From Vermamoeba vermiformis (taxonomy: Eukaryota), in assembly GCA_045837725.1 (NCBI GenBank), contig JBEWZL010000208.1, positions 124,001-188,000 of the forward strand: a DNA stretch of 64,000 nucleotides, written 5' to 3'. Each line of letters begins with the position of its first letter. Position 1 is the stretch's first letter. The notes under the pieces are model-generated. The model saw nothing but the letters and a program-made list of their open reading frames with translations, made no database searches and had not been told where the DNA came from. The position numbers and the translations under genes were made by a program. Positions 2,107 to 59,845 of the stretch are shown in pieces.

Positions 2107-2180
2107 TGGCCATTCCAGGGATCGAACCTGGGACCCTCGCGTTATTAGCACGATGCTCTAACCAACTGAGCTAAACGGCC
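2107..2180 (-). tRNA. trnI-AAT: tRNA-Ile (anticodon AAT)
   Basis: Reverse complement GGCCGTTTAGCTCAGTTGGTTAGAGCATCGTGCTAATAACGCGAGGGTCCCAGGTTCGATCCCTGGAATGGCCA folds as a cloverleaf with anticodon loop CT-AAT-AA and GGTTCGA in the T arm. T-tracts (Pol III terminator) lie just downstream. Confidence 0.96.
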
Positions 2181-2841: not shown

Positions 2842-5311
2842 ATGGGTAACAAGGGTTTGGCCGGAGAGCTGCATAAAATGCGCAAGAAGGAGGTGATCGA
2901 CCTTCGCAAAATGGGCATCCAAGCCCTTCCTTCTGCTATCGGTGCCTTGCAATGCAAAACATGCATTATCGCCGAGAATGATATCGTAGAAATTCCAGAA
3001 GATATTCAAAAGATGACGAACCTTCAGGTAACGTTCAAAAAGCAAGGCAGTAATAATTTGGATTCGATCCGCCCACTCACTTTATTCTTATCATTCACAT
3101 GAAATACAATTTAATGTAATTATTAACAATTTATTGAAGGTTTTGGAAGCAAATTCAAACCGTTTGAACGGTGTCCCCATTGAGATCGGAAACTGCCCTG
3201 CTTTGGAAGAGCTCAACCTTCGTGATAACAAATTGTTCTTCTATGGTAAGCACCTGTATATTATTTTAGATATTATTGAAAAATTATCACGATTGTTTTT
3301 GCGTTGGTAGATTCTAAATTCTTTTTATCGCGATACCTAACGATTTATATAATACTAACAACTTAATATATAGGTCTTTCACCTGCTCTTGGAAAGCTTA
3401 AAACCTTGAAGAAATTGAACGTTGCAAACAACCAATTGGACGAGATCTGCAAGGAGTTAGGAGACTGCGTGGCCTTGGAGTACCTCGATATTTCTGAGAA
3501 CAATATTAAGGCCTTGCCCGTGCAATTAGGCCAATTGCGTAACTTGCGCTCATTAATTGCCAGAAAGAACCAGATCCAAGCCTTCTCGGCTGCTTTGTGC
3601 GAGATCGCCTCGTTGACCGAATTGAACTTGGAAGAAAACAAGCTGTTGACTGTGCCTGCTGAGATTGGCAAATACTCCGACATGCTCATATTAAACTTGA
3701 GCTGCAACTCGCTGAAGGAATTGCCCGAGACTGTTACCAAGCTCGGCAAGTTGGAAGAATTGAATTTGAACGATAACGCTCTTATTCAAACTCTGCCTTC
3801 GTTCTCTAACTTCCCTAACATCAAGAAGTTGGGCATTCGTAACTTACAGGTACGTCTATTAATTTTTAACTTATTTTTTCTGCGATCCTCGGACTTTATT
3901 TCCAAGATCCGGAGCTTAGTAGTTTGCACAGTCCTAATATAGCATGTTATTAATAGATCACCTTCTTGGACCCGTCTATTGGTACCTTGGTCGGTTTGGA
4001 AGAGTTGGACTTGAGAGCCAATGCTCAAATGGCTTCAGTCCCCGAAGAAATCGGTAACTTGGTCAACCTCAAGCGTTTGGGTACGTATAGTTATTCTCAT
4101 GCAGTAGTGTCATATTAATAGAGTATTTTTGTTGTGGATGATACTTTTTGGGCTTCGTGTAACGAGCAAATTACATTTTCGTTGTAAATTATTTCCATAT
4201 TATTCGTGGCTTTATTATTTGTTTATACATTATTATAACAACTTAAATAGTATCGAATACTCATTTACAATTATGCTAATTTATCCTCGCCTTCAGATCT
4301 GTTCCGTAACAAGTTGAAGACTTTGCCTCATACTATTGGCAAGTTGACCAACTTGGTCTTGCTTGATTTGCGAAACAACTTGTTCACCGTTGAATTGTTG
4401 CCTCCTGAGCTCGGCAACTTGGCCTCATTGCGCAAGATCTTGTTGAGCAACAACAAGCTCACTACTTTGCCTCCTGAGATCCGCTCTTTGACCAGCTTGA
4501 ACGATTTGGACGTTAGCAACAACCAAATCACCGATCTTCCTCAAGAAGTTGGAGAGTTGGAAAGCCTTACCTCGTAAGTATCAAAAAAAGAATAGAGAGC
4601 ATCCGTAGAAAAAATTATAGAATTGTTCTAACATCGTTATAAAATAGATTGAACGTGTCCGGCAACCAATTGAAGAAGTTCCCTAACTCTATGGGAGGTT
4701 TGACTAACTTGCAACAACTCGAAGCTAAGCACAACGAAATTTCTCTTTTGCCACCTGAGATGGGCTTCTTGGTCAAGTGCTCTAAGATGGATCTCTCCCA
4801 CAATATGGTGCGTATACATATATCATATAGAGATAATTATATTCGTTCACTGTAATGAGCCACAGTTCGTTACAATTTTTTTTTGAATTTTGGATCTCGA
4901 TTTAAATACACTAAGCAACACGTTGTTATACTAATTACTAATGTACTATTATAGATCACTGAAATTCCTTGGGAGTTCGGAGAGTTGGAAACTTCGCTCA
5001 GAGTGCTCGACATTAGCCACAACCCCGTCGTTATTCCGCCCAAGGCTGAAATTAACAAGGTAATTGACCACTTCATATCAATAATACTGCTTATGGCGCA
5101 TATAATAAGATCCTAGCTATAATTACTTTTTTAATAAGTTGATCTTTTGCGCGATCGGATCCGCTATGTTTGGATCAAATTTTTAGCGTTACATGAGCGA
5201 TGAACTTAACGATGATATTTGCAGGGTACTACTGCCATGTTGCAATGGTTGAAGAAGAACGAAAAAGAAGGCAAGAAGGCTAAAGTCAGCGGTTTGGGCC
5301 TCAAGAACTAA
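2842..5311 (+). CDS. lrrA: Leucine-rich repeat protein, orthologue-like to Dictyostelium LrrA (SHOC2/LAP-type LRRs), multi-exon
   Basis: The N-terminus MGNKGLAGELHKMRKKEVIDLRKMGIQALPSAIGALQCK and C-terminus GTTAMLQWLKKNEKEGKKAKVSGLGLKN* match the termini of Dictyostelium LrrA as I recall them. About 20 LxxLxLxxNxLxxLP repeats are spread over roughly 8 coding exons. Confidence 0.85.
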
Positions 5312-6144: not shown

Positions 6145-6639
6145 TGTTTGATCTTCTACAATTAAGGCGCCTTTTGTTGAAATCGATCAGTATCGCTATA
6201 ATTTTATTACGACGTATTATTTTGGAATATAGCCACTAATATTTCATTTACAGGTCTGAAATAATAAGAGAAAGTTTTCAAAAGTAGATTTAAAATTGCT
6301 CTATTCTTGTTAAGTCTCGCGCTTCAGTCGTAAAGCAAACATACCTCGATTTAGTACACAAAGTAGGTGAAAATCAATGAGCTCACTGGTATGTGGTCGT
6401 GATCTTCAAGCGTAAATCAAAATATCGCGCCATTTTCCGCTGAAACCAAATAAGGCAAGCCATTTATCTTAAAAACGTTGGCGATTATGAACAATTTATT
6501 TATATCTTCGATTTGGAGGCGATGTCAGACGAACAACATTTGTGGGGTAGAGAAATGGGTCGGAAAGGCAAGAACCGCTTCAGTTGTAAATAAATCAGTT
6601 CAATTATTCAAATTAAAGCATCAAACACGAACATACACA

Positions 6640-7874
6640 ATGGAGCACCCTACAGATAACGTCAAAAAGCAAAAGAGAACTTTGGAAACTGAAAAGTACG
6701 AGGATCAGCTCAAAGTAAGTCTGGAAATTAATGTAATTAATTCTGATATTTAATTTGGCTACAAAAAACGTTTAGTAACTATTTTTTGCACTGCTTTTTA
6801 TTCGCACTTGGTATTTAAACAATATTTAGAGGAAATTAACTTTGAAAATTACTAGATCTGGCCTGAAGAGGGACGACATATATTGGCACACTATGACGAA
6901 GATACTATAGTTGTATATCAAGCATTTAAGCCAAGTATAGCGAAATACGCGGTCGAGAATCAGAAATTCGGAGGTACGAGCTGATTAATTCGACTTAACG
7001 GTTTACGACGGGTACTAAAGCTGATATTTTAAGGACCCGAATATAATGCTTCGCGTATGACCTGGATCAAAACAAATTTCTTGTGGATGATGTTCAGATC
7101 CGGATGGGGCTCGAAAAAAGATCAAGAACGAACACTTGCTATATGGTTAAAACGCTCTTCATTCGAATGGATATTATCTCAAGCTGTAGGCAGTAAATAC
7201 CACCCTGAAGTCCATGGCGATCGAGCTAACTATGAGAAATTAAAGAAAGGAAAAGTTCGTTTACAATGGGATCCCGATCACAAGCCTGATGGTTCTAAGG
7301 TAAGCTCTTAATACTATAATATACATCTATTAAGATTCTTTTGATCAATTTTCCAACATTTTCAGACCGGTCTGAGTACAGGTCCAATTTTTTTTATCGT
7401 TGTGTACCACCAGATCCGACCAATTTTTTGCAAGTTCGAGTGCTTGTCGTAAACTTTTTACTAATATGGAGTTAATATAGACGATAAGAAGAGCAATCCA
7501 ATTAGGTCTTAAAGGCCTGAATGAGTTTACTAACGGTGACATGATCGTCAAGATTGAAGACATTTCAGAGTTTGTCGCGGAACAATCAATTAAGGCCAAT
7601 TCAGGTTAGTTTAAGTACATTAATTATATGAACATATATCATTACCCGAGCCAGGTGTATGCTTTAACTGATCGTTAATATCTGACTCAATCGATTTTTC
7701 GCAGGAGCTTGGAACGAGTTAATTGTGCCACGAGAGCGAGTCTATCAACTTATCGATGAAAAAATAGCCAGGAATATTAATTTGCAGTCTTGCAAGACTC
7801 AGCGGCGAATGAAGATGGCGGTGCTGACGACGAGTAATGTAATACGACATTTTGTTACTTCGCAAAGGTATTAA
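6640..7874 (+). CDS. DUF4291 family protein, multi-exon
   Basis: Spliced motifs ILAHYDEDTIVVYQAF, RMTWIKTNFLWMMFRSGWG and VRLQWDPDH, then RRAIQLGL, are characteristic of DUF4291. The exact stop is uncertain (7837-7874). Confidence 0.8.
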
Positions 7875-8055
7875 TGAATAATACGATAAGTTCAATCAAC
7901 TTTGATGTATTTCGCAACTTTTCACTTTGAATGCGCTGTCCCTGGATACTCGGCCCAAAATTATCTCTGGCTTAACAAAACTTTCTTTGCATTCGATGAG
8001 TTTTGGGTTTTAAAGTTGGTTTTTCCATTTCGTAGCAACACGAATGTTACACGCT

Positions 8056-11000
8056 ATGGCTCTTTCATTCCGAACAGCCTCTCGGTTTAGCTGGCTCGTG
8101 AAATGTAAGAAGATCTACGGATCGTGAGCAACTTTCACACCAAACTACTAATGAAAATTAACGGCGTTTACGTAATAATTAATACTGATTTTTGTGAAGC
8201 TAAGGGGCATATCTTGAAGGTGAAAATCGGAAGGAACACAGCCATCTTTGCAACGCAACCAAATTATCGTGATGTCCCCGTAAGAGCCATTACTGGAACT
8301 AGTATCTCGGAAGGTAAGTAATAAACGTTATTATAATAATTTTGGTGGCTAAATTAGTCATCATTAGCAAAAAGTAAACGTAGGTAGCTGCAAAAATATT
8401 TGAAAGCAAACTGACCAGAAAAATAGCAACGAAGTGGCGAGAAGAAATTGCACTCAAAGGTGATACAGAAAGTATCAAACAGAAAATTAAATGGTTGGCG
8501 AGTGGCTCGGCAATGGAAATGAAACCGTTACAATTTTTTGAACAGCTTTGCAACTTTCCAACGCCCCAGCTCACTCGCGTAAAAGAACGAGCGGAACTTT
8601 TGGAACAATTGCGAGACAAGCCCATTGCAAAGTATTTGAATGAGTCCAAAATACCAATTCACCCTATTAATGGAAAAGTGGATTTTCGCTTTCTTCAAGA
8701 GCCGTTCTTTGCAGATGATCCTGTCATTGAAACTCTTCGACTGATGGTCAAACCTAAACAAGGCCAGACAGTCACGCTGGTTGGTCAGTCAGGCATTGGG
8801 AAGATTGGTATGTTCATGGTGTTGTGCTGTAGTTTTGTAACATTGTGTTTTAGGGGCCATCTTTGCATTTGCTCAAAAACAGTATGTTTTGTACATTGAA
8901 GCAAACCCATGCAAAAAACAGAACTCTTTTTCTGAATTTTATCTGCATGGACAAAAGATAATGCAGATAATAGCTCAGATGGGCACAGAATGCTCAAGTA
9001 GCTTGGCTACTGATTTAATGACTTGTCTAACTCAACTGTTGTGGCTTTCACATGCCCTAGTATTGAAGCAACAATGTCCCTTTGTTAGTCCAGTTGGATG
9101 GATTGCTCTTGAAAGTGATGAATGCCAAGACATCAAAGATACAATGAACAAACTAGGCACTTGGTTTATTGAAGATTTGAAGGCCAATAACTGTAACAAG
9201 GATTGGGTGGCTCAAAAGCATCGTGAATTTGATGAGTGCTTAAGAGAGCTCACTCAAGATGTAGTCTTTGTGATTGATGAAGCACATTTAGCTCAAGGGC
9301 TCTTTGAAGAATCATTGCCTACAAATATTAAATTTGTTAATGCATTATGTAATGAAAAGAGGTAAGCTTGAACTTTACATTTTAATTGAATTGAAATTGT
9401 AATGTAGGAATTTTCTAACAATACTGGCACATTATTCATTGCCTAATGCAAGAACACTGCTTGTGGTGGGGACTCAGATAACAAGCTATGATGACATATC
9501 ATTAACTAGTGGGGAGTCCAAGCCCTCCAATAACATTAACCTTACAAGGGTGCAATTTCCACTTGTTCATCCTGAAGATGCAATTAGAATTGCAACAGAC
9601 CTATTTCCCAGTATCAAAGGAAATAAGACACTAGAACAATCAATTGTCAATGCTGCTACAGGACATTTGGGACACATTACTTCATTATTGGAGTTCATTT
9701 GCAACTATTCTCATTGCAGTGAATCAAAGTCCCTATCAGATTTCATTTTGTTGGGCATTGAAGCATGGAAACAGAAGGTGCAATCTGAAGTTCATGAAAA
9801 ACTCAATTCTTTGCACCTACTTTTTAGTACAAATGAGAATAAGAAGCACAATTGTATGTATCTATTTGAAGTTAAAGGTTGTAAAAATCTTACTTGCTTT
9901 GTGATTTAGGGCAACAACTGCTGTTACAACTGTATTATGATGCAGCCATCAGTGGTGAAAGAAGAATACCAGAGCATGAATTCAAAGCACTTGGAATGAG
10001 TTTGGAGGACTTGAGTGTAGCAATGGTGACTGAATGGCTGGTCAAATTGAAAATTGACACTGATAATGAGCAATGTAAGTTATGATAGCAATTTAATAGA
10101 GCTAATTTGTTTGTAGTCTTCAGATACATCAACATTTGTGAGCCATTGGCATTTGAAATATTCAAAAACTGGCTCAGAACAAACTCAGACTTAAAAGATT
10201 ATGTTGATGAGTTTGAAGCACTGCTGGAAGGTGCTGTTGGCACCAGCTTCAATCCAACTCCTAATATTAACGGAGACACCTTTGCAAGACTTCTTGGGGC
10301 TTTGCTGGTATGCCACCAAACACTTCTATTGAGTCTCATTAATTCTATTTAGCTCAATCTATCAACAAAAAACCAGTTGAAAATCAAGCAACTTCCTACA
10401 ATCAATTCACTGGAGCATTTGCCTGATTGGACCAATTCTATTGCCTTCCAAACACCATGGACTTTCTTTGGCAAAGCAACTGAGTGCCAAGAATTGCTTG
10501 ATGCTGTGCAAATTCTTAGTGAGGTTGATGTTGCTGGATCCCCAATTGCTATGCTAAGAAGGCAGTTTAGAGGATCTCCAGTACTCTCATGCCTCTTCAA
10601 AAATCATCATACTATGAAAAAAGAGCTGGAAGCATTAATTGCAATCAAAAGCTGTGACCAGGAATTCCAACCAGAATTGCTCATGATACTAAATGGATAT
10701 GACAAAGTCCTTAGCAATGCCTTCAAGATTTATTGGACCAGACATGATTGGGATCAAAGGTAATGATTACCAGGTAAAATTATTTCATTAGCTGATAATT
10801 TTCTTAAAGGGAATGTGTTGTATTTGGTTGGACTCTATTGCTATTCTTCTCCCACAATCAAAGAACAGTTTGATGCACTGGGCAAAAAGCAAGCCATTCA
10901 ATTGAAAAAATTTAATGTGTTGTACACAAATAGACATGGAGCTCCTTATCCAGCCAATGCAAATTCAACATTGCAACTCATTCTCAAAGCCAAGAACTAC

Positions 11001-11183
11001 CACCAAGTTTGGTTTGATATTAGATTGCCACAAACAAATGCAGATGTGACAAGTGTTGCCAGCGACGATAGACTTCATGTTTTAATCACGCAAGACAACT
11101 TTGGTGAACTTACTTTGAGTCCACAAAAGTGGGCAAAAATTGCAGCAAAATTGGCATACAAAAGCTCTTCAACAATGTATTGA
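8056..11183 (+). pseudogene. Crinkler/RHS-type P-loop NTPase plus degenerate restriction-endonuclease-fold gene; probable frameshift near 10710 (pseudogene, cryptic intron or sequence error)
   Basis: Walker A-like VTLVGQSGIGKI, Walker B VVFVIDEAH, then GDTFARLLG. MPSRFIGPDMIGIK lies in a shifted frame that splices correctly into the last exon. The other introns are phase-compatible. Confidence 0.55.
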
Positions 11184-11305
11184 AGAGGAAGCTAAACTTT
11201 GAAATTTCAAGTAAAGGGGCTTTTGCCAAAAGCCATATTTGAATGAGTGCACTGTACCTGGCTATTTTTTGGCTTGAGTCCATTTCGAGGAATCAACAAA
11301 TCCAA

Positions 11306-13366
11306 TCAGTCCTCGCTTGTACAGCAGATATTTTGCTGTACACAAAAATTAATTGATATTATTAATTAGTAGGTTTTTTTTTGCTTACGTCCATGATCTT
11401 CAATTAAGTACGCAGTCTCTCCAGGTAAAAAGTTGAAGTCATATTTGTCCCTCGAAACATCCTCGCCAGTTGCCACCAAATATTTGTGCCGAGTATTCAT
11501 GCGCACGAATTCTATTCCTCGTTCATTCAATGCTTGCTCTAACGTTGCATAACTTTCGTCTGAAATCTCCGCTTCAAGCTCAACCCGCGTTAAATTCTTG
11601 CAATGACTTAACGCCTTAATAAATTCGTTGACGTCAAGTTGTCCAACGTCTAGTAATAAAACATAAGTATTATTATATTTAGGACCGTTTTGTTTTCAAT
11701 TTGACGAATGAAAAAATTTTTTTTGATTGTTTAAATCTATCAGACTAGAAAATTAGGAGCAGTAAATTTTAATTCCGTAATAATCATAGACTTACTTGCT
11801 AAGGACAAGTACTGCAACGAATTCGGGAAAAATATCGTTTGTAAAGGCACCGGAATTTGCTTCTTGCACGTGACCGAGAGCTCTTTTAAGCGCGAAAACA
11901 CGTCTAATTGGGACCACAACGATTTTTCTTTTGTTTTGATGAATTTCGGCGAGCCGACTGCAAGTGAAGTCAATTGTGTCAATGCAAATATCTTGCTGTC
12001 AACTCGAAACTGATAGAGTTTTTCCAAATTAGTCAATTTGACCAAATTAGGTGCGTCAATGCTGTAAATTTGCATATCTGTGACACGTGTCATATTTGAC
12101 ACGAAACTCGGTTTGACGTAGAACGGAACAACTGTTTTGAACGTTTTGACGTTCAATTTGGCCATATTATCGAGGAAATTATTGTCGTAATACCTAGAAA
12201 ATACTCGCGTTAGTACGTACAATTGCTATTTACGGGCTTTGTTGTATCATCGGTTGATCGGGCTAAAAAACTTGAAGTCTCAGCATTCGTTTTCATTTAC
12301 ACATAAATGAAGTTCCATATGAATGTAATATTGGCAGGTATCAATATAAGGATATTATTTTTGATCGAATGTCAAAATATGGTCAGAAATTTTTCGGATC
12401 CGCAGAAAATTAATTGACCACGTAAATTGCGGGCTATAGTTGCTAATAAAAAACTTTGCAATGATTTATCGCAATGCTTACCACGCATCAAAGCCATATA
12501 AGTACAAATAAGTCAAGTTCTTGAGATATGCCAATGTGTCAATGAACGTGTGATAATATTTCACGACAGTCAGATCTGTTAAACTCTTGCAAAGTCTTAA
12601 ACATCGCTCGTAGGGATATGACAGCGTATCGCATTCGAAACTCTGCAAAATCGACCAATCAGAAACTAGCTCGAAACTTAAACTTCATCCGTGAAAAAAT
12701 TTTCGCATTGAATTATAACCAATTATAATATAATGAATATTTTGATAATATACATATTATTTTCAGCATAATTGAGTCGATTAGAAGTTTTACAATTAAA
12801 GGCAAAATTGTTACCGTTAAATTTGAAGGCAGATCCGCCATAATGCCAGGATTTTCAGCAGTAATGCGCATTCGTTTGTATTTTCTTGCCAAAAATGGTA
12901 ATAATCGGAATAAACTATCAGCTCTGTAGTCCTTGGTTATCTTGACTGTGTATGAATCGACTGTTACGAAGAACCACTGTGCGAATGCTTTCGACGTACA
13001 GCATAGCCTGTAATATTATAATTTGTTATTTATATTATTATTATTTAAATATTGGCCCTTTTACTTGCACGGTAAAGGAGCTTAAAATAATAGCATTTTT
13101 AATTATGAAAAAACAAACGTTCCATAATAGCACCAATAATAAGTTCATAGTATATGCAGAATTATTATATATTTTTCTTACTTGTAAAATACGTTTTCGT
13201 CAACAACAATGAAAGATCCGATCAGCAACAAAACTTCCGTTGGCAATTCCGCCAAGTACCCAAGCCCTTCGTAATTGAGATTGCCTAGATAATAGAGCGC
13301 TACATTGTTAGGATACACATCCATAGGTTCGTCATCGGGAGGTCCTTCATAATCGTGTTCTTCCAT
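11306..13366 (-). CDS. F-box protein with degenerate LRR-like C-terminal region, multi-exon
   Basis: N-terminal LAELPTEVLLLIGSF is F-box-like. Downstream exons have LxxLxxLxL-type segments (LTNLEKL, LTQLTSL, SLQYLSL). The 3' end is approximate. Confidence 0.65.
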
Positions 13367-13418
13367 TTTGAATTTAGTTTTGAATGCATAAGCACGGCGC
13401 TTTCTTTTAATAATATTA

Positions 13419-14267
13419 ATGTCGCTGCTATCATTTCATAAATTAACAAGCTGGGCTTCTATAGCACTGCAAGCTATGGGATGCGCTTACATACTGGAAA
13501 AACATGTCTACATCCGGAAGGTAATGCACTAATTTCCCTCCAAAAAATCTAAAAAAATCAATTATAACCTTTTACGTTACATTCATATACGGAAAAATTG
13601 TTTGAACTATTTCAGACTCAATAACAATTATACTAATATTTTTTACCGGTTTGTTTTCAGATCCGGATCTGACAAATCTTTTGCATCATAGGGTAGCGGT
13701 CAATCAATGCTTCCAACCTTCAATCCATACGATTTTATATTCGGCGAAGCAATTAGCTTCAAATACTTCTCGCGCCCATTAAAAATTGGAGACGTTGTAA
13801 TCTTCACCTCGCCCGTGAATGGACGAGACCTTTATTTAAAGCGAATAACTGCCTTAGTACGTATTATGATAATATTTACTAGTATATTTTCACATTAACT
13901 AAGCTATCATTAATTTTAGGCCGGAGATAAAATTAGACCTGACGAGACTTTCGAATACAATTACGGAGACGATGAGTATTATAGTGTAAGCTAGTCGTAA
14001 GATTATTTAATAGCAATTATGGTGCTTAATAAGGATATTATAGATTCCATACGGCCACATCTGGGTCGAGGGCGATAACAAAACTGAGTCGTTAGATTCA
14101 CGGAGTTACGGACCTGTTCCGGCCAATTTAGTGCGGTACCGTGTTGCAGCAAAGGTATGTTATATACTTATTTATGTAATTAGCGTACTGACGTGGTGCA
14201 GATCGGTTGGCCTTTGCAGTGGGGTTACGATCCGAAAAAAGTAACCAACAGAAAAGTTGACCTGTAG
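13419..14267 (+). CDS. Mitochondrial inner membrane peptidase IMP1/IMP2-like (peptidase S26)
   Basis: Spliced motifs GQSMLPT (catalytic Ser), GDVVIF, YLKRITAL (catalytic Lys) and IPYGHIWVEGDN..SLDSRSYGPVP. Confidence 0.88.
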
Positions 14268-41778: not shown

Positions 41779-44700
41779 ATGGAAAAGAAAGGAGGAAGAG
41801 GAAAGCGGCAACGTAAGGATAACAACAATGATCCGAATAAACGACCTGCAAAAAGAACCAAGACGCAAAAAAATGAAGAAGGCCTATTTGATACCTTACA
41901 CGATGAATTAATCATAAACGTGTTGGTTCAGATCCCGATGAAATATTTTCGTAAGTAATCAATAAATCAATTTTTATTATTATCCCCGTACGAAAAAATC
42001 CTAATAACCCAGATTTATAAATAAACGCATTAATATATTAGATATTACCTTGTATTAATAGCAACAAAATTTTCTGATTAAATTTTACAGCGGATCTAGC
42101 AAGAACGTGTAGAGCGGTGGTCCCATTTATCCCAAAAGCAAGATTTCTGGCGATTATATGCAATAAGACAGTGGGGACCCAATATATTACCAAATCAACT
42201 TATAAAGAGTACTACTGGTTCAGTTGAAGTCGATCTCTCGAAGCATTTGATCCCAACAATTCAGAGTAAGTTTTCTATAAATAGAAATATTCATATGAAT
42301 AATACTCTAACGAACAATTCATCAGTTGGCGGGCAACAAGTTGTCGATTGGTTCCGTTATTGCAAGATCAGGTAATATTTTTTGTTCGATCCAAAATTCA
42401 TTTGTTACGCAGCATAGCTAATGCCTTATATTTAGAATATTATTTGCACATGTTAAGAAAGGACTAAAACAAAACCATAATTACGAGTTGGAAGACGACT
42501 GGAACGATTTATTTGATGATGGCATTGATGACGACTATGAGTTTGGTGATTATGATTATGATCTCCAATCATTGGAAGACTATTTCGGAGATGAGCCCGA
42601 TATGTATAGTGAAGAACAAGAAGAATTGCAAAATTTGCTAGATGACTTACGGAACCCAGATCTCGATGATCTGAACGAAATTGACCAAGCTGAGATCTCC
42701 ATGAACAGAAATAATAATAATAATGCTAACCAAGCGAATAATAATAATGATACGAGCAATAATAAGAAAAACTTCATAGATTTTACGGACGAAAAGGAGT
42801 TAGAAAAGCTAAGCGAGCTCTTTAACAGCGCCAGTATGGACGAGGAAGAAGAATCTTTCAATGATTATGACGATGACGAAGAGTCGTTTCGCGAGGCAGT
42901 GCAAGAATTGGTGGATCAACACAAGCGAGAGACCGACTCGCACGAGAATCAGGTACGTCTCAAAAATTATTATATTTTATTACGCGAAAATGAGAAATTA
43001 TTTTTAGAAATTGATTATTGGAAAATTGTTAACGAGCTCCAACTTGAATAATTTCCGAATTTAAATTCAGTTCAATTATCCTCATGTATAATATTAGGGA
43101 AATGTAGCGGTTCTAATTGTGGTTATTAGGCCAATTTCGAGCTGACAAACGAAAATGTGAAGAATTTCATCGTGGATCTGCCGATCAATCCAGGCTTTGA
43201 TTTCTCACAACCGCATTACTTGCCTAAAGTCCTATTCGAATTCTTATACGAATTGCTCCCTATGGTCTTTGGAGCTAGCAACTTGAGCATGACTTCGAAG
43301 CACATGACCGAAGCCTTCAAAAACGTTTGCGACTATTTAGAAGAAAAAGGAGAACGGTACGTGCCTATTTTATTAAGAGACCCTAAATAATATTGTTAAT
43401 ATTTTTAAATTAATCTTATAATTGGGTTCGATGAGAACAATCAAGATCCGCTGTGAAAAAATCCGTGATTAGAAAAATATATAGGACCGTACTAATAATC
43501 TTATCTTTTTACGATAGATTCGCAGAAAAATATTACGAGCGAATGTTAGTGGTGCAAAGCAAAACAAAACAGATGTTCGACATGTTCATGTGTTCGTGCA
43601 AAATGTTTTTGCAACTCCAAGGGGCCGACGAAAGGAAGAAAATTTTGTTCAAGAAATTATTGCAAACAATGTTGGATATTATTCCGCTGCTATTGAACTT
43701 CGATATCGAGCTCGAATTGAAAGATTTGTTGAAAAATGAATTCACCCCCGAAGAAGCCAATCAAGAAGACGTTGTCGGACAATTAATCCCGGAGATTAGA
43801 AACGCGTTAAGATCTACCCGAAGTTTGCACGACAAATTGCCGAAGACATGTGATATGACCAAATTTAGGTATCCTTCGCGCGAGATTGCCGAGAGATCAC
43901 TTACGTCAAAAGATCCTATTGCAACTATAATCACACCAAATTCGAAAGATTATGCAAGTAAGCTCAGTCACTTTCCTAATTTAGTATTATCATCTATCGC
44001 GGTGAAAATTTTCATTTGAATTTAGACGCCTAATTTCCTACTATTTATGACGCTAGTTCTAACGGTCTGATTAGACCGCTTTTTCCATAATAATAATAGC
44101 TGCACTCAATTTTTTTTGGGCACTAATGAGTTTTTTCTAGTCTTCAACGAGATCTTGGGCCACTTTATCATTGACAAGTTCATCTCAGTCGATGATTTGA
44201 ACGTCAAAGCCGCAGCATTAGCATTACTTGACGTGTCATTACAGCGCACTTATGAACTATGCACCAGTGTTCTACCGTACGTGCCTTAGTATAGATTGAT
44301 AGTATGACTCACCGTTATTGCTTTAGTATTATTTTTGAGGCCACGCAACACGACTACGAAGAAATTTCGTTCGCTGGATTCGTCGCGCTGCATAAATTTT
44401 CAACGGACAAAGAAATCGTGCAGAAATTGACTAAGAAACAAGTCACTATGGCTGTTGAAGCTGTCGTGAGAGGAATTGTGAAATTTCCGCATAGCACGTA
44501 AGTACCATCCTCTTTTCCTTATTTGGTAAAATTTCCTTTCAAAGCTTCGAAAAATTATTTTTCTCAGATCCAACCAACTAACGTTATTATTTTTGTGAAG
44601 ATTTTATCTAGTGAATATTCTCGTACGACTATTGAAAAATAGAGGCGAGTTCATGTCTGACAACGCTCTTCGACGAGTTCAACGAGCGGTTGTTGAATAT

Positions 44701-47534: not shown

Positions 47535-47607
47535 ATGCCAGTAGCTCAGAGGTACGAGCGTTGGCCTCCGGAGCCAAGGGTCGTGGGTTCAATCCCCACC
47601 TGGCATG
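47535..47607 (+). tRNA. trnR-CCG: tRNA-Arg (anticodon CCG)
   Basis: ATGCCAG/CTGGCAT acceptor stem, GCTC/GAGC D stem, TTGGC-CT CCG GA-GCCAA anticodon arm, GTGGGTTCAATCCCCAC T arm, followed by a T-run terminator. Confidence 0.92.
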
Positions 47608-57304: not shown

Positions 57305-59213
57305 TTAATATTTACAGTTAATATTCGTGGTCAAGGTCGGGTTCGCAGGACGAGACAACACCATTTGAACGTCTCCCAAAAATCTCGTCTTGAAGCCAGC
57401 CTCGCAATAAGTGAAGTAATATTTCCATTTGCGAATGAATTCGTTATCAAAGCCCATTTTCATAAACTCGTCTTTGTGGCTCATAAAATTTCGTTCCCAC
57501 ATCTTCAAGGTCTTCGCGTAATGGAAGCCAATATTTTCCAACTCTTCGAGCTGTAAATTGCTCGATTTGGCCATAGCCTCAGCGAGCGACGTAATCGAAG
57601 GGCAAAGGGATCCAGGGAAGATGTATTTTTGAATGAAATCAACGCTCTTTGAGTACTCAGGGAATCTATAATAATAATATCCTCGTTAGAGCTTATTTTA
57701 TAACGCAATTGTAACGAAATAATCGGTGCCGCTATTGGCGGGAAGTTTTCAGTGGACTAACGGCTGGTACACAAGCAACGCTTACCTGTGATCAGGAGTG
57801 GTAATGACTTGGATGACAGCAAGGCCTTCGGGCTTCATCAATCGGTCAATAGAAGCAAAGTAGTTGTTGAAGTTTTCTTTGCCGATGGCTTCAAGCATTT
57901 CAATCGAGATCACCTTGTCGTACTGATGGATAAAGCGTTATATAATTGTCAATATAAGTAAATATAGTTACAATAAGTGATGGCATAGCGAAATGATTAT
58001 AAATAAGGAAATTGCGGAGGAATTTGAGTTTCAGATCTGCTGTTTCAAGACTTACTTGGCCTTCCATATGTCTGTAATCGCTAAAAACGACGTTGATTTT
58101 GTCGTTAAGTCCATTTTCCTCGACGCGCTTCTTGGCCTCTTTGTACTGTTCTTCCGAGATCGTAATCGTTGTGATCTTGCAACCCGTTTTCTTGACGCAT
58201 TCAATGGCAAAACCTCCCCATCCACTACCAATCTCGAGCACGTGATCAGTCTTCTTAATTTGGCCCTAATTCCAAAAGTTGATTAGAATTTCTTGTTTCG
58301 GTTCGGATTGCGCTTTCAAAAATAAAATAAATCGAATGCGACCGTTAAATTGCACTCGTGAAGGGTAGGAATAAAATTGCAATAATTGTTTAAATTGCTA
58401 TTCTCAACTTTGTCCGTAAGGGCTCCAGTCCAAAGTTAAAGATATTTTTGGGATCTGCTCTCGCGACTTAAATTTGCAAAATTTTCGGTAATTTATTCAA
58501 CCAAATTGAAGTCATTATTAAGTATTAATTATGTAAAACAAAATTCGAGCATTATTGCTGAAACCGAAGCAGATCAGGAAAATTTGGATTTGCCCGACCA
58601 GAATTTCGGGCCAAGACAATACTTGCAATTTCAAAATGAGCTATTTATATGGAGTACTTCCTACCTTTTCAATCATTTTGTGGATTTTGTTGCGCTGGGC
58701 TTCCTCCAAGGTCTCATCGGGGCGCTTGAAAAAGGCGCAAGAATACATCATTGTAGGGTCCAAAAACTTCATAAACATGTCGTTGGAGAGGTCGTAGTGG
58801 TCGTGAATGTTCTTGCGAGCATTCTTGATGGTATTCGTGCGAGTTATGACGTAAACTAAGCGCCCGAACCATCGCGTGAGGGCCGATGTGATCGCATTCG
58901 TGTCTGCAACCTGACGGTTGGCCATCATTACCTCAAAAAATTTAGTGAGATCATCGACGTCAATGTCCTCGGCCATATAAGCCTCAGCAAAGCCAAGATC
59001 CCAGCCAGTAATGACTTTCCAGTAGAAAGATAGTTCTCTGTTGACCGTTACAGTGACGCGCAGGTTACGTTCTTTTTCGTCGCCAATAATTATCTCTTCT
59101 CGAGGGGTCTTAAAGACGATGCATCCGGCTTTCAACGTGCGTAAATACGAGAAAAAAATATAGTGAAGCAGAGAAAGGACCAGATTCGACAAAAAATAAA
59201 TAGGAGCAGCCAT
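57305..59213 (-). CDS. cfa: Cyclopropane-fatty-acyl-phospholipid synthase (SAM-dependent methyltransferase)
   Basis: LGFAEAYM, NIHDHYDLSND..FLDPTMMYSCA, LEEAQRNK, VLEIGSGWGG, DKVISIEMLEAIG, FIQKYIFPG, HYAKTL..W, RKWKYYFTYCEAGF. Confidence 0.93.
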
Positions 59214-59845
59214 TTTAATAAATAATAGTTGCTCTTGTGGTCGTTATAAATACAAAGCGTGAAGAAAAGTGCTAAAAAATCAGTTCTTGTTTTGGCTTTA
59301 AGTCCCAAAAAGGAAATAAACATCCGACGAGGTCACGCGAGAAAATATCCGAGGCACGCGATTAAACGACGTGGCAGAACAGACCAATGGGCATTCAGGA
59401 ATGCAATTTTCCCCGTTCCGTGTGACGCAGATCGTGCTCCTCCGGCCTCAGTTCTGTTACCGCGCGGCTCGTAATTAGTTTATTCGTTAAATACATTGAA
59501 AATGGCCGCTGCAGTTAAATTAATCCGCCACTCAGGCAACAAATGAAGGGAACCACCATTGAGATCGTTTTCAAATCCAAAATCAAAAGACCCAAAAAAT
59601 ATATGCATTTATTTAGCAGAGTAAATGTGACTAACACTGCTGTATGGAGGCAAACTCAAATCAAACACTATTAAAATAGTAAATGCACTTTAAAGCGCGC
59701 AAGTAGTCCCATCCGAAGTAGTAGGTGAGACTAATCGAGACAACTCAAAAGGGGACGCGTCGTCCATAAAAGTATCAAGCGACAATTTCTAGTAATTTAA
59801 TTTCATTGTAATCGGTAATCGAGCACAACACATGAAATATTTGAC

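Follow-up and report, generated by a model that had tools for sequence, protein, structure and literature searches.

The window analysed here is a stretch of 64,000 nt (positions 124,001 to 188,000 of contig JBEWZL010000208.1, assembly GCA_045837725.1, deposited as Vermamoeba vermiformis), and it contains one gene on the + strand, predicted at 8151-11183, whose body is nearly free of the dinucleotide CG (CpG). In the core of this CpG desert (8778-11061, 2284 nt) we found 2 CG, where 79.7 are expected from base composition at a GC content of 37.4% (observed/expected ratio, o/e, 0.03), and both TG and CA are up by about 1.5-fold. The reading that we favour, with about even confidence and from the sequence pattern, is that heritable methylation of CpG cytosines was confined to this one gene body and was followed by deamination of 5-methylcytosine (5mC), methylation thus being the putative mutagen.

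Extent and statistics of the CpG-depleted block

The window as a whole is rich in CpG (2907 CG against 2595 expected), and outside the block its o/e is 1.15. At the window's own o/e, 89 CG would be expected in the block, and the Poisson probability of finding two or fewer is 7e-36; set against 1125 background windows of 2284 nt, whose o/e spans 0.89-1.50, the block lies at z = -9.1. The removal of CpG amounts to about 97%. The three longest CG-free gaps of the window (1049, 792 and 447 nt) all fall within the block, the fourth longest (197 nt, 11089-11286) falls in its 3' tail, and the longest one found anywhere else is 152 nt. The 25 other long open reading frames (ORFs) of the window each have a CpG o/e of 0.90-1.60, none of them being below 0.90.

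The two edges of the block differ in shape. The last upstream CG is at 8775 and the first downstream CG is at 11063. At the 5' edge the CG density drops in one step: the final 200 nt before it contain 8 CG and the next 447 nt none. The 3' limit is graded: the adjoining segment 11062-11285, which holds the last 40 codons of the gene, the stop codon and about 100 nt downstream, is a weaker CG-poor tail (3 CG against 8.0 expected; three or fewer occur in 0.1% of 2415 background windows of 224 nt), and with it the depletion reaches about 100 nt beyond the stop codon. The first of the two surviving CGs (9222-9223, +) lies within an Arg codon, CGT, and the second (10271-10272, +) spans the codon boundary AAC|GGA.

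The host gene has 8 exons predicted from ORFs and splice motifs (8151-8313, 8388-8807, 8854-9361, 9408-9853, 9910-10074, 10117-10307, 10353-10759 and 10810-11183, all +), separated by 7 predicted GT-AG introns of 42-74 nt with 28% GC. Its ATG is at 8151 and its stop codon at 11181-11183, and the desert opens 627 nt after the ATG, inside exon 2. By CG counts, the part of the gene upstream of the desert (8151-8777, +; exon 1, intron 1 and most of exon 2) is CpG-normal; its segment 8384-8777, for example, has 15 CG against 16.9 expected.

A preliminary description of this DNA, made from the letters alone, had counted only two CG (9222 and 10271) over about 2,290 bp, which our recount reproduced exactly, and its estimate of 70-80 expected CG agrees with the computed value. 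It had also held that ordinary genes and the 5' end of this gene were spared, and the figures above bear this out for 25 of 25 other long ORFs and for the first 627 nt of the gene (about 700 bp had been proposed).

We note two further features of CpG distribution in the window. At the other end of the scale from the desert, some ORFs at 11740-12225 and 42422-44019 reach a CpG o/e of 1.49-1.60, which is unusually high. Right on the 3' edge of the core (11062-11068) lies a CGACGA repeat in which about half of the depth of DNA run X1 shows a 3-nt indel of one CGA; 2 of the first 3 CGs after the desert belong to this repeat.

Dinucleotides that replaced CpG

Inside the block TG has an o/e of 1.58 (1.05 outside) and CA an o/e of 1.53 (1.07 outside), so that the abundance of TG and CA noticed at first reading holds on measurement, with both raised about equally; GpC shows a smaller shift (1.39 inside vs 1.21 outside). 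When the desert exons are balanced against the 25 other long ORFs, they are short of 79 CG and have 59 TG and 58 CA in excess, and from this near-equal excess it follows that both strands were affected equally. The introns of the desert have 0 CG against 4.9 expected and its exons 2 against 74.4, in agreement with the earlier remark that exons and introns are depleted alike. Since the introns are depleted too, the effect is one on DNA and not on codon choice. When only sequence is available, erosion of CpG is the standard proxy for DNA methylation in the germline, and a CpG-specific loss with a symmetric excess of TG and CA, as observed here, is what deamination at methylated CpG should leave behind.

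Codon evidence for substitutions filtered by selection

Codons in the desert indicate how the lost CpGs were replaced. Among its NCN codons, 68 of 134 (0.507) are NCA, as compared to 0.244 in the 25 background ORFs; this share fits a change of NCG to synonymous NCA only (expected 0.469, P = 0.39) and rejects unfiltered change (expected 0.402, P = 0.014). Where the next codon starts with G, the ratio NNT|G : NNC|G is 99:1 in the desert vs 504:488 in the background, and where it starts with another base (H) the ratio NNT|H : NNC|H in the desert is 122:109, i.e., C before non-G bases is unchanged. No TGA stop is found in the desert frame despite about 5.8 CGA codons expected (P = 0.018 without selection).

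Arginine CGN codons have no synonymous escape via transition, and the desert retains a single one of them (the CGT at 9222, the sole CGN among its 17 Arg codons) in 664 codons, vs about 20 expected. Arginine makes up 2.6% of the residues in the desert vs 4.6% in the background (P = 0.012), with AGR codons slightly raised (P = 0.047). The residues to which CGN transitions lead (Cys, His, Gln and Trp) have a combined share of 12.8% vs 8.7% (P = 4e-4). At many arginines the pressure of mutation evidently outweighed selection. Random miscalls, or an unselected burst of mutation, would predict NCG to NTG as often as NCG to NCA, and CGA to TGA as often as CGA to CAA. The CpG changes are thus real substitutions that passed selection, neither errors nor the outcome of a one-shot event resembling repeat-induced point mutation (RIP).

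These observations bear on the idea that a homology-guided modification or hypermutation (RIP, methylation induced premeiotically (MIP), or a small-RNA-guided process) acted only on the stretch common to another copy, which would account for the sharp limits. Known homology- or repeat-directed systems are RIP in Neurospora, MIP in Ascobolus and the CpG hypermutation of basidiomycete repeats, and the desert is like them in its sharp limit, its near-total removal of one dinucleotide and its C-to-T and G-to-A transitions. Removal that is near complete (97%) with sharp limits is rare for spontaneous decay, and the gene is a member of a family. The desert differs from these systems, however, in that no duplicate was found in the window or by read depth, in that CpG and not CpA is the target (CpA is raised, not depleted), and in that no stop codon arose (at the probability given above) and the changes are biased to synonymous ones, unlike an unselected burst. 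The RIP-like process suggested in the preliminary description does not agree with these last three features, and we consider homology-guided modification improbable.

Read and haplotype evidence

Apart from CpG, the desert looks like the rest of the window. In codon classes free of CpG, usage of the third base shows no difference from that of the window's other ORFs (P = 0.076), the introns of the desert and those beyond it share one short GT-AG type, and the reading frame and the splice sites run unbroken across both desert edges. As codon usage apart from CpG is native, the introns are of one kind, the frame is continuous and no viral relative was found, the gene is taken as native and import from another genome is unlikely. 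Such an import had been offered in the preliminary description as an alternative; native codon usage, host-type introns and intron positions common to homologues all disfavour it.

Contigs of DNA run X1, matched by exact 31-mers, are identical to the desert over 9130-9766 and 9997-10386 (0 differences) at a depth of 400-690. Over the desert, X1 depth lies for the most part at 220-850, with a single bin at 46, comparable to 300-850 in the flanks. The desert DNA is therefore real and single copy. X1 is possibly the assembly's own sample, and the codon evidence thus weighs more than the reads against an artefact, which could consist of systematic base-calling errors at modified CpG or of a chimeric or contaminant insert. 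There is no record of the platform on which the assembly and runs X1-X4 were sequenced, which, together with the possible origin of X1, leaves some room for this explanation. Against it stand the exact 31-mer contigs at the depth just given, the continuity of frame and splice sites over both edges, the native codon usage, and the fact that random miscalls would yield stops, and NTG as often as NCA, neither of which is seen. We regard an artefact as extremely unlikely.

A variant X1 contig differs from the window by 9 bases and one 1-nt deletion over 10677-10818 and by one more base at 10964, and at none of 10 listed differing sites does it create a CG; the loss of CpG therefore predates, or is common to, that haplotype or copy. 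Other X1 contigs reveal further variation along the gene. One contig has 19 base differences and 9 gapped positions over 8263-8460 (the end of exon 1, intron 1 and the start of exon 2), i.e., it is about 10% different there, and then turns identical to the window from 8461 to 8805, which indicates mosaic haplotypes. Another tracks the gene to 9365 (4 nt into intron 3), beyond which its remaining 255 nt are unrelated; either an insertion carried by another haplotype or a second copy that continues differently could account for this. In flanking genes and intergenic DNA, X1 contigs skip 65, 250 and 113 nt at 7323-7389, 12204-12455 and 12695-12809, respectively, as length polymorphisms. Small parts of the flanks turn up in water metagenomes; one such run, X5, gave 5 short pieces at a depth of 2.7-5, in the flanks only and none in 8372-11881, too sparse to interpret.

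The main rival to gene-body methylation is a recombination mosaic, in which the CpG-free stretch was copied in by gene conversion or unequal recombination from a CpG-poor paralogue or a divergent allele. The donor would have been eroded elsewhere, e.g. in a methylated region, and the edges of the block would be the ends of the conversion tract. A step-like 5' edge inside an exon with an unbroken reading frame is what such a tract end could leave, the gene's family, of which 7 representatives were found, has divergent members, and the X1 contigs both jump from about 10% different to identical and, in one case, leave the gene at 9365 for unrelated sequence. The window contains no paralogue, however, and reads are no deeper over the desert than over its flanks; the 3' limit is graded and coincides with the end of the transcription unit, unlike a random tract end. 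A recombination mosaic would also still require a CpG-eroding process elsewhere in the lineage, so the cause would be moved rather than replaced. We hold this explanation to be rather unlikely; homology-guided modification, artefact and selection against CpG (see below) are ranked lower.

The host gene, its protein and its homologues

The window allele has 766 open codons up to the end of exon 7, and its exon 8 is one base out of frame. The X1 variant lacks one base at 10711 (+), which restores the frame between exons 7 and 8, and the whole coding sequence is then open to the stop. The predicted protein has a Walker-A-like GQSGIGK (8780-8807, +), recognised by eye at the end of exon 2 directly after the desert's 5' edge, and a Walker-B-like DVVFVIDEAH in exon 3 (9262-9291, +), which, from the translation and an alignment of homologues, is their best-conserved stretch. 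Pfam, PADLOC and PDB sequence searches with the exons and the homologues gave no significant family match, and an AlphaFold model of the homologue P0007 (built on a 10-row alignment) has a predicted local distance difference test (pLDDT) score of 63, with half of the chain below 50. The protein is best described from its sequence as an orphan with P-loop-like motifs, which were recognised by eye and lack a profile match. The preliminary description had spoken of a transposon-derived NTPase-nuclease gene and of CRN-like genes. No Pfam, PADLOC or PDB family supports the terms nuclease and CRN-like, and an origin from a transposon is unsupported: the gene is single copy by read depth, the block edges lack terminal repeats (just short chance matches were seen there), and a search found no second copy of the gene within the window.

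When exon 3 was searched exhaustively with HMMER against 1.84 billion representatives, only 7 proteins matched, all unnamed and exon-sized, with 27-82% identity to exon 3. Most of these fragments stop where exon 3 stops, and intron positions are therefore common to the homologues. In word-based protein searches, exon 3 found only P0001 among proteins of similar length and nothing among longer proteins, and exon 4 found nothing among proteins of similar length. A search of viral contigs found no relative. The one locus picked up in a metagenome scan, L001, was considered as a relative and rejected, as it shares only a Walker-B-like match of 34-35 aa and has an ordinary CpG content. Among distant homologues (leaving out P0008 as a near-duplicate of P0003), 0 of 3 Arg-majority columns are kept in the window, one Arg having become Cys, a number too small to build on. 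Two RNA runs that carry the same species label placed 0 reads anywhere on 6500-13500, so they provide no test.

Proposed gene-body methylation and comparison with known systems

Under the reading that we favour, germline cytosine methylation at CpG would have been heritable and restricted to the body of the desert gene's transcription unit, starting some 630 nt after the ATG and ending some 100 nt beyond the stop. There 5mC would have been deaminated to thymine, turning ancestral CpG into TpG or CpA by transitions, and such transitions would have built up gradually while selection kept the reading frame. The promoter-proximal part and all neighbouring genes would have been unmethylated and would hence have retained their CpGs. 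We prefer this reading because the loss is specific to CpG and symmetric between strands, includes introns, spares the 5' end and extends to the 3' end of the transcription unit. The position of the desert matches a gene-body profile, with a spared 5' end and a domain that runs to the 3' end of the transcript. The preliminary description had proposed a targeted CpG-methylation silencing or RIP-like system. Its targeted CpG methylation remains plausible, given symmetric CpG-specific loss over introns and exons with the 5' end and the neighbours spared. Its RIP-like component was dropped, as was silencing, which is not indicated, the promoter-proximal part being spared as in gene-body methylation.

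Several points weigh against gene-body methylation. The desert gene is the only one affected (0 of 25 other long ORFs in the 64 kb examined), and CpG o/e is not bimodal; in mosaic-methylated animals a large share of genes is affected, typically housekeeping genes. An o/e of 0.03 is far below the values known for methylated invertebrate genes, and an equilibrium at 416 TG+CA vs 2 CG requires each cytosine to decay about 100x, and at least about 29x, as fast as ordinary transitions occur. The step-like 5' edge looks more like a recombination junction than a long-held chromatin boundary. Comparison with homologues, which had been suggested as a check, showed no excess of CpG transitions: in exon 3, changing TG or CA back to CG gives a better match at 7 of 54 nonsynonymous sites, as compared to 22 of 142 for other transitions, and as reversion does no better than other transitions, the ancestral states are not polarised. 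Finally, if the host is a rotifer, the desert would be unexpected, since rotifers are reported as a group without genomic 5mC (PMC13012060, PMC8885841); the first of these lists nematodes and tardigrades along with rotifers as being without genomic methylation.

The closest known counterparts are the gene-body CpG methylation footprints of invertebrates (PMC3827831, PMC2975444). Like the low CpG o/e genes of Ciona, the honeybee and cnidarians, the desert gene shows CpG to TpG/CpA change over exons and introns, a spared 5' end, unaffected neighbours and a coding sequence under selection. It differs in being one gene only, in its deeper depletion (o/e 0.03), in its step-like 5' edge, and in not being a housekeeping gene but a lineage-restricted orphan. 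With a CpG-rich first 0.6 kb ahead of a depleted body, it also recalls the vertebrate-type arrangement, but the surroundings of the desert are CpG-rich (o/e 1.15) and the depleted body is the exception. Repressive 5mC on virus-derived or transferred genes is described for Acanthamoeba, Naegleria and others (PMC12344493); this is alike in that methylation is aimed at particular genes of a sparsely methylated genome, whereas the desert gene has no viral or foreign signature and is spared on its promoter side.

Another locus-selective, CpG-preferring cytosine modification is the N4-methylcytosine (4mC) that N4CMT deposits in bdelloid rotifers (PMC8885841, PMC10406627), rotifers being freshwater animals and the sole taxon lead for this DNA. 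Deamination of 4mC yields uracil, and uracil is quickly excised from DNA (PMC10406627); in Adineta vaga a signature of deamination is reported to be absent (PMC8885841). For both reasons 4mC is not expected to erode CpG. It could matter in a different way if the gene shed its CpGs under selection, to escape a CpG-directed silencing or recognition such as the N4CMT/SETDB1 4mC pathway in a bdelloid host. In line with this, N4CMT is described as preferring CpG and marking silenced elements (PMC10406627, PMC8885841), and 1 of the 2 surviving CGs lies in ACGG, a reported disfavoured site, which at n=2 is anecdotal. Selection per site, however, would be far too weak to clear about 85 sites, of which 5 are expected in introns, arginine codons were sacrificed, and the taxon assignment behind the N4CMT example is only a lead. 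We judge selection against CpG to be very unlikely.

If the host does belong to an animal group held to be without C5 methylation (a rotifer), the desert gene may be the fossil record of a heritable, CpG-specific system, still present or lost only recently, that modified or mutated cytosines, was aimed at individual gene bodies and had base-pair-sharp limits. In such a host the system would be a cryptic 5mC pathway or a mutagenic effect of 4mC in vivo. We consider this doubtful. The titles and abstracts searched on CpG methylation or depletion in rotifers and other invertebrates describe no single-gene CpG desert in a CpG-rich animal genome.

Neighboring genes

The genes around the desert gene encode leucine-rich-repeat (LRR) proteins, an ankyrin protein, a calpain domain-III protein, an LCM-Kelch-cupin protein, a DEAD-box/DDX60-like helicase, a DUF4291 protein and a CMAS-like protein. 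Several LRR genes lie on both sides of the desert gene (215-1708, 3367-3942 and 11366-13000). In two Atlas look-ups, the helicase is nearest to a cluster in which Rotifera is the commonest known phylum, and the calpain piece is nearest to animal calpain-7 clusters; this amounts to no more than a hint of an animal host, which may be a rotifer. The DUF4291 ORF (7033-7311, +; E = 1e-33) and the cyclopropane-fatty-acid-synthase-like CMAS ORF (58641-59243, -; E = 4e-20) belong to families that we take to be mostly bacterial or fungal, and it is possible that both were horizontally acquired by an animal-like genome. Rfam found two tRNA genes only in the window, at 2107-2180 (-) and 47535-47607 (+).

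Implications

Near-complete erosion of CpG (97%) is limited here to one gene body in DNA that is otherwise rich in CpG. If methylation is the cause, then very few genes would be targeted and the borders of the target would have been fixed over long evolutionary time; the mutational load would have rewritten the protein, with Arg halved and Cys, His, Gln and Trp raised; and the gene would be a clean natural example in which to study how methylation is directed to one gene alone. Should the block be a conversion tract, it would point to a hidden CpG-poor compartment elsewhere in the genome. And if the host comes from a phylum supposed to be methylation-free, the question of methylation in that phylum would be reopened.

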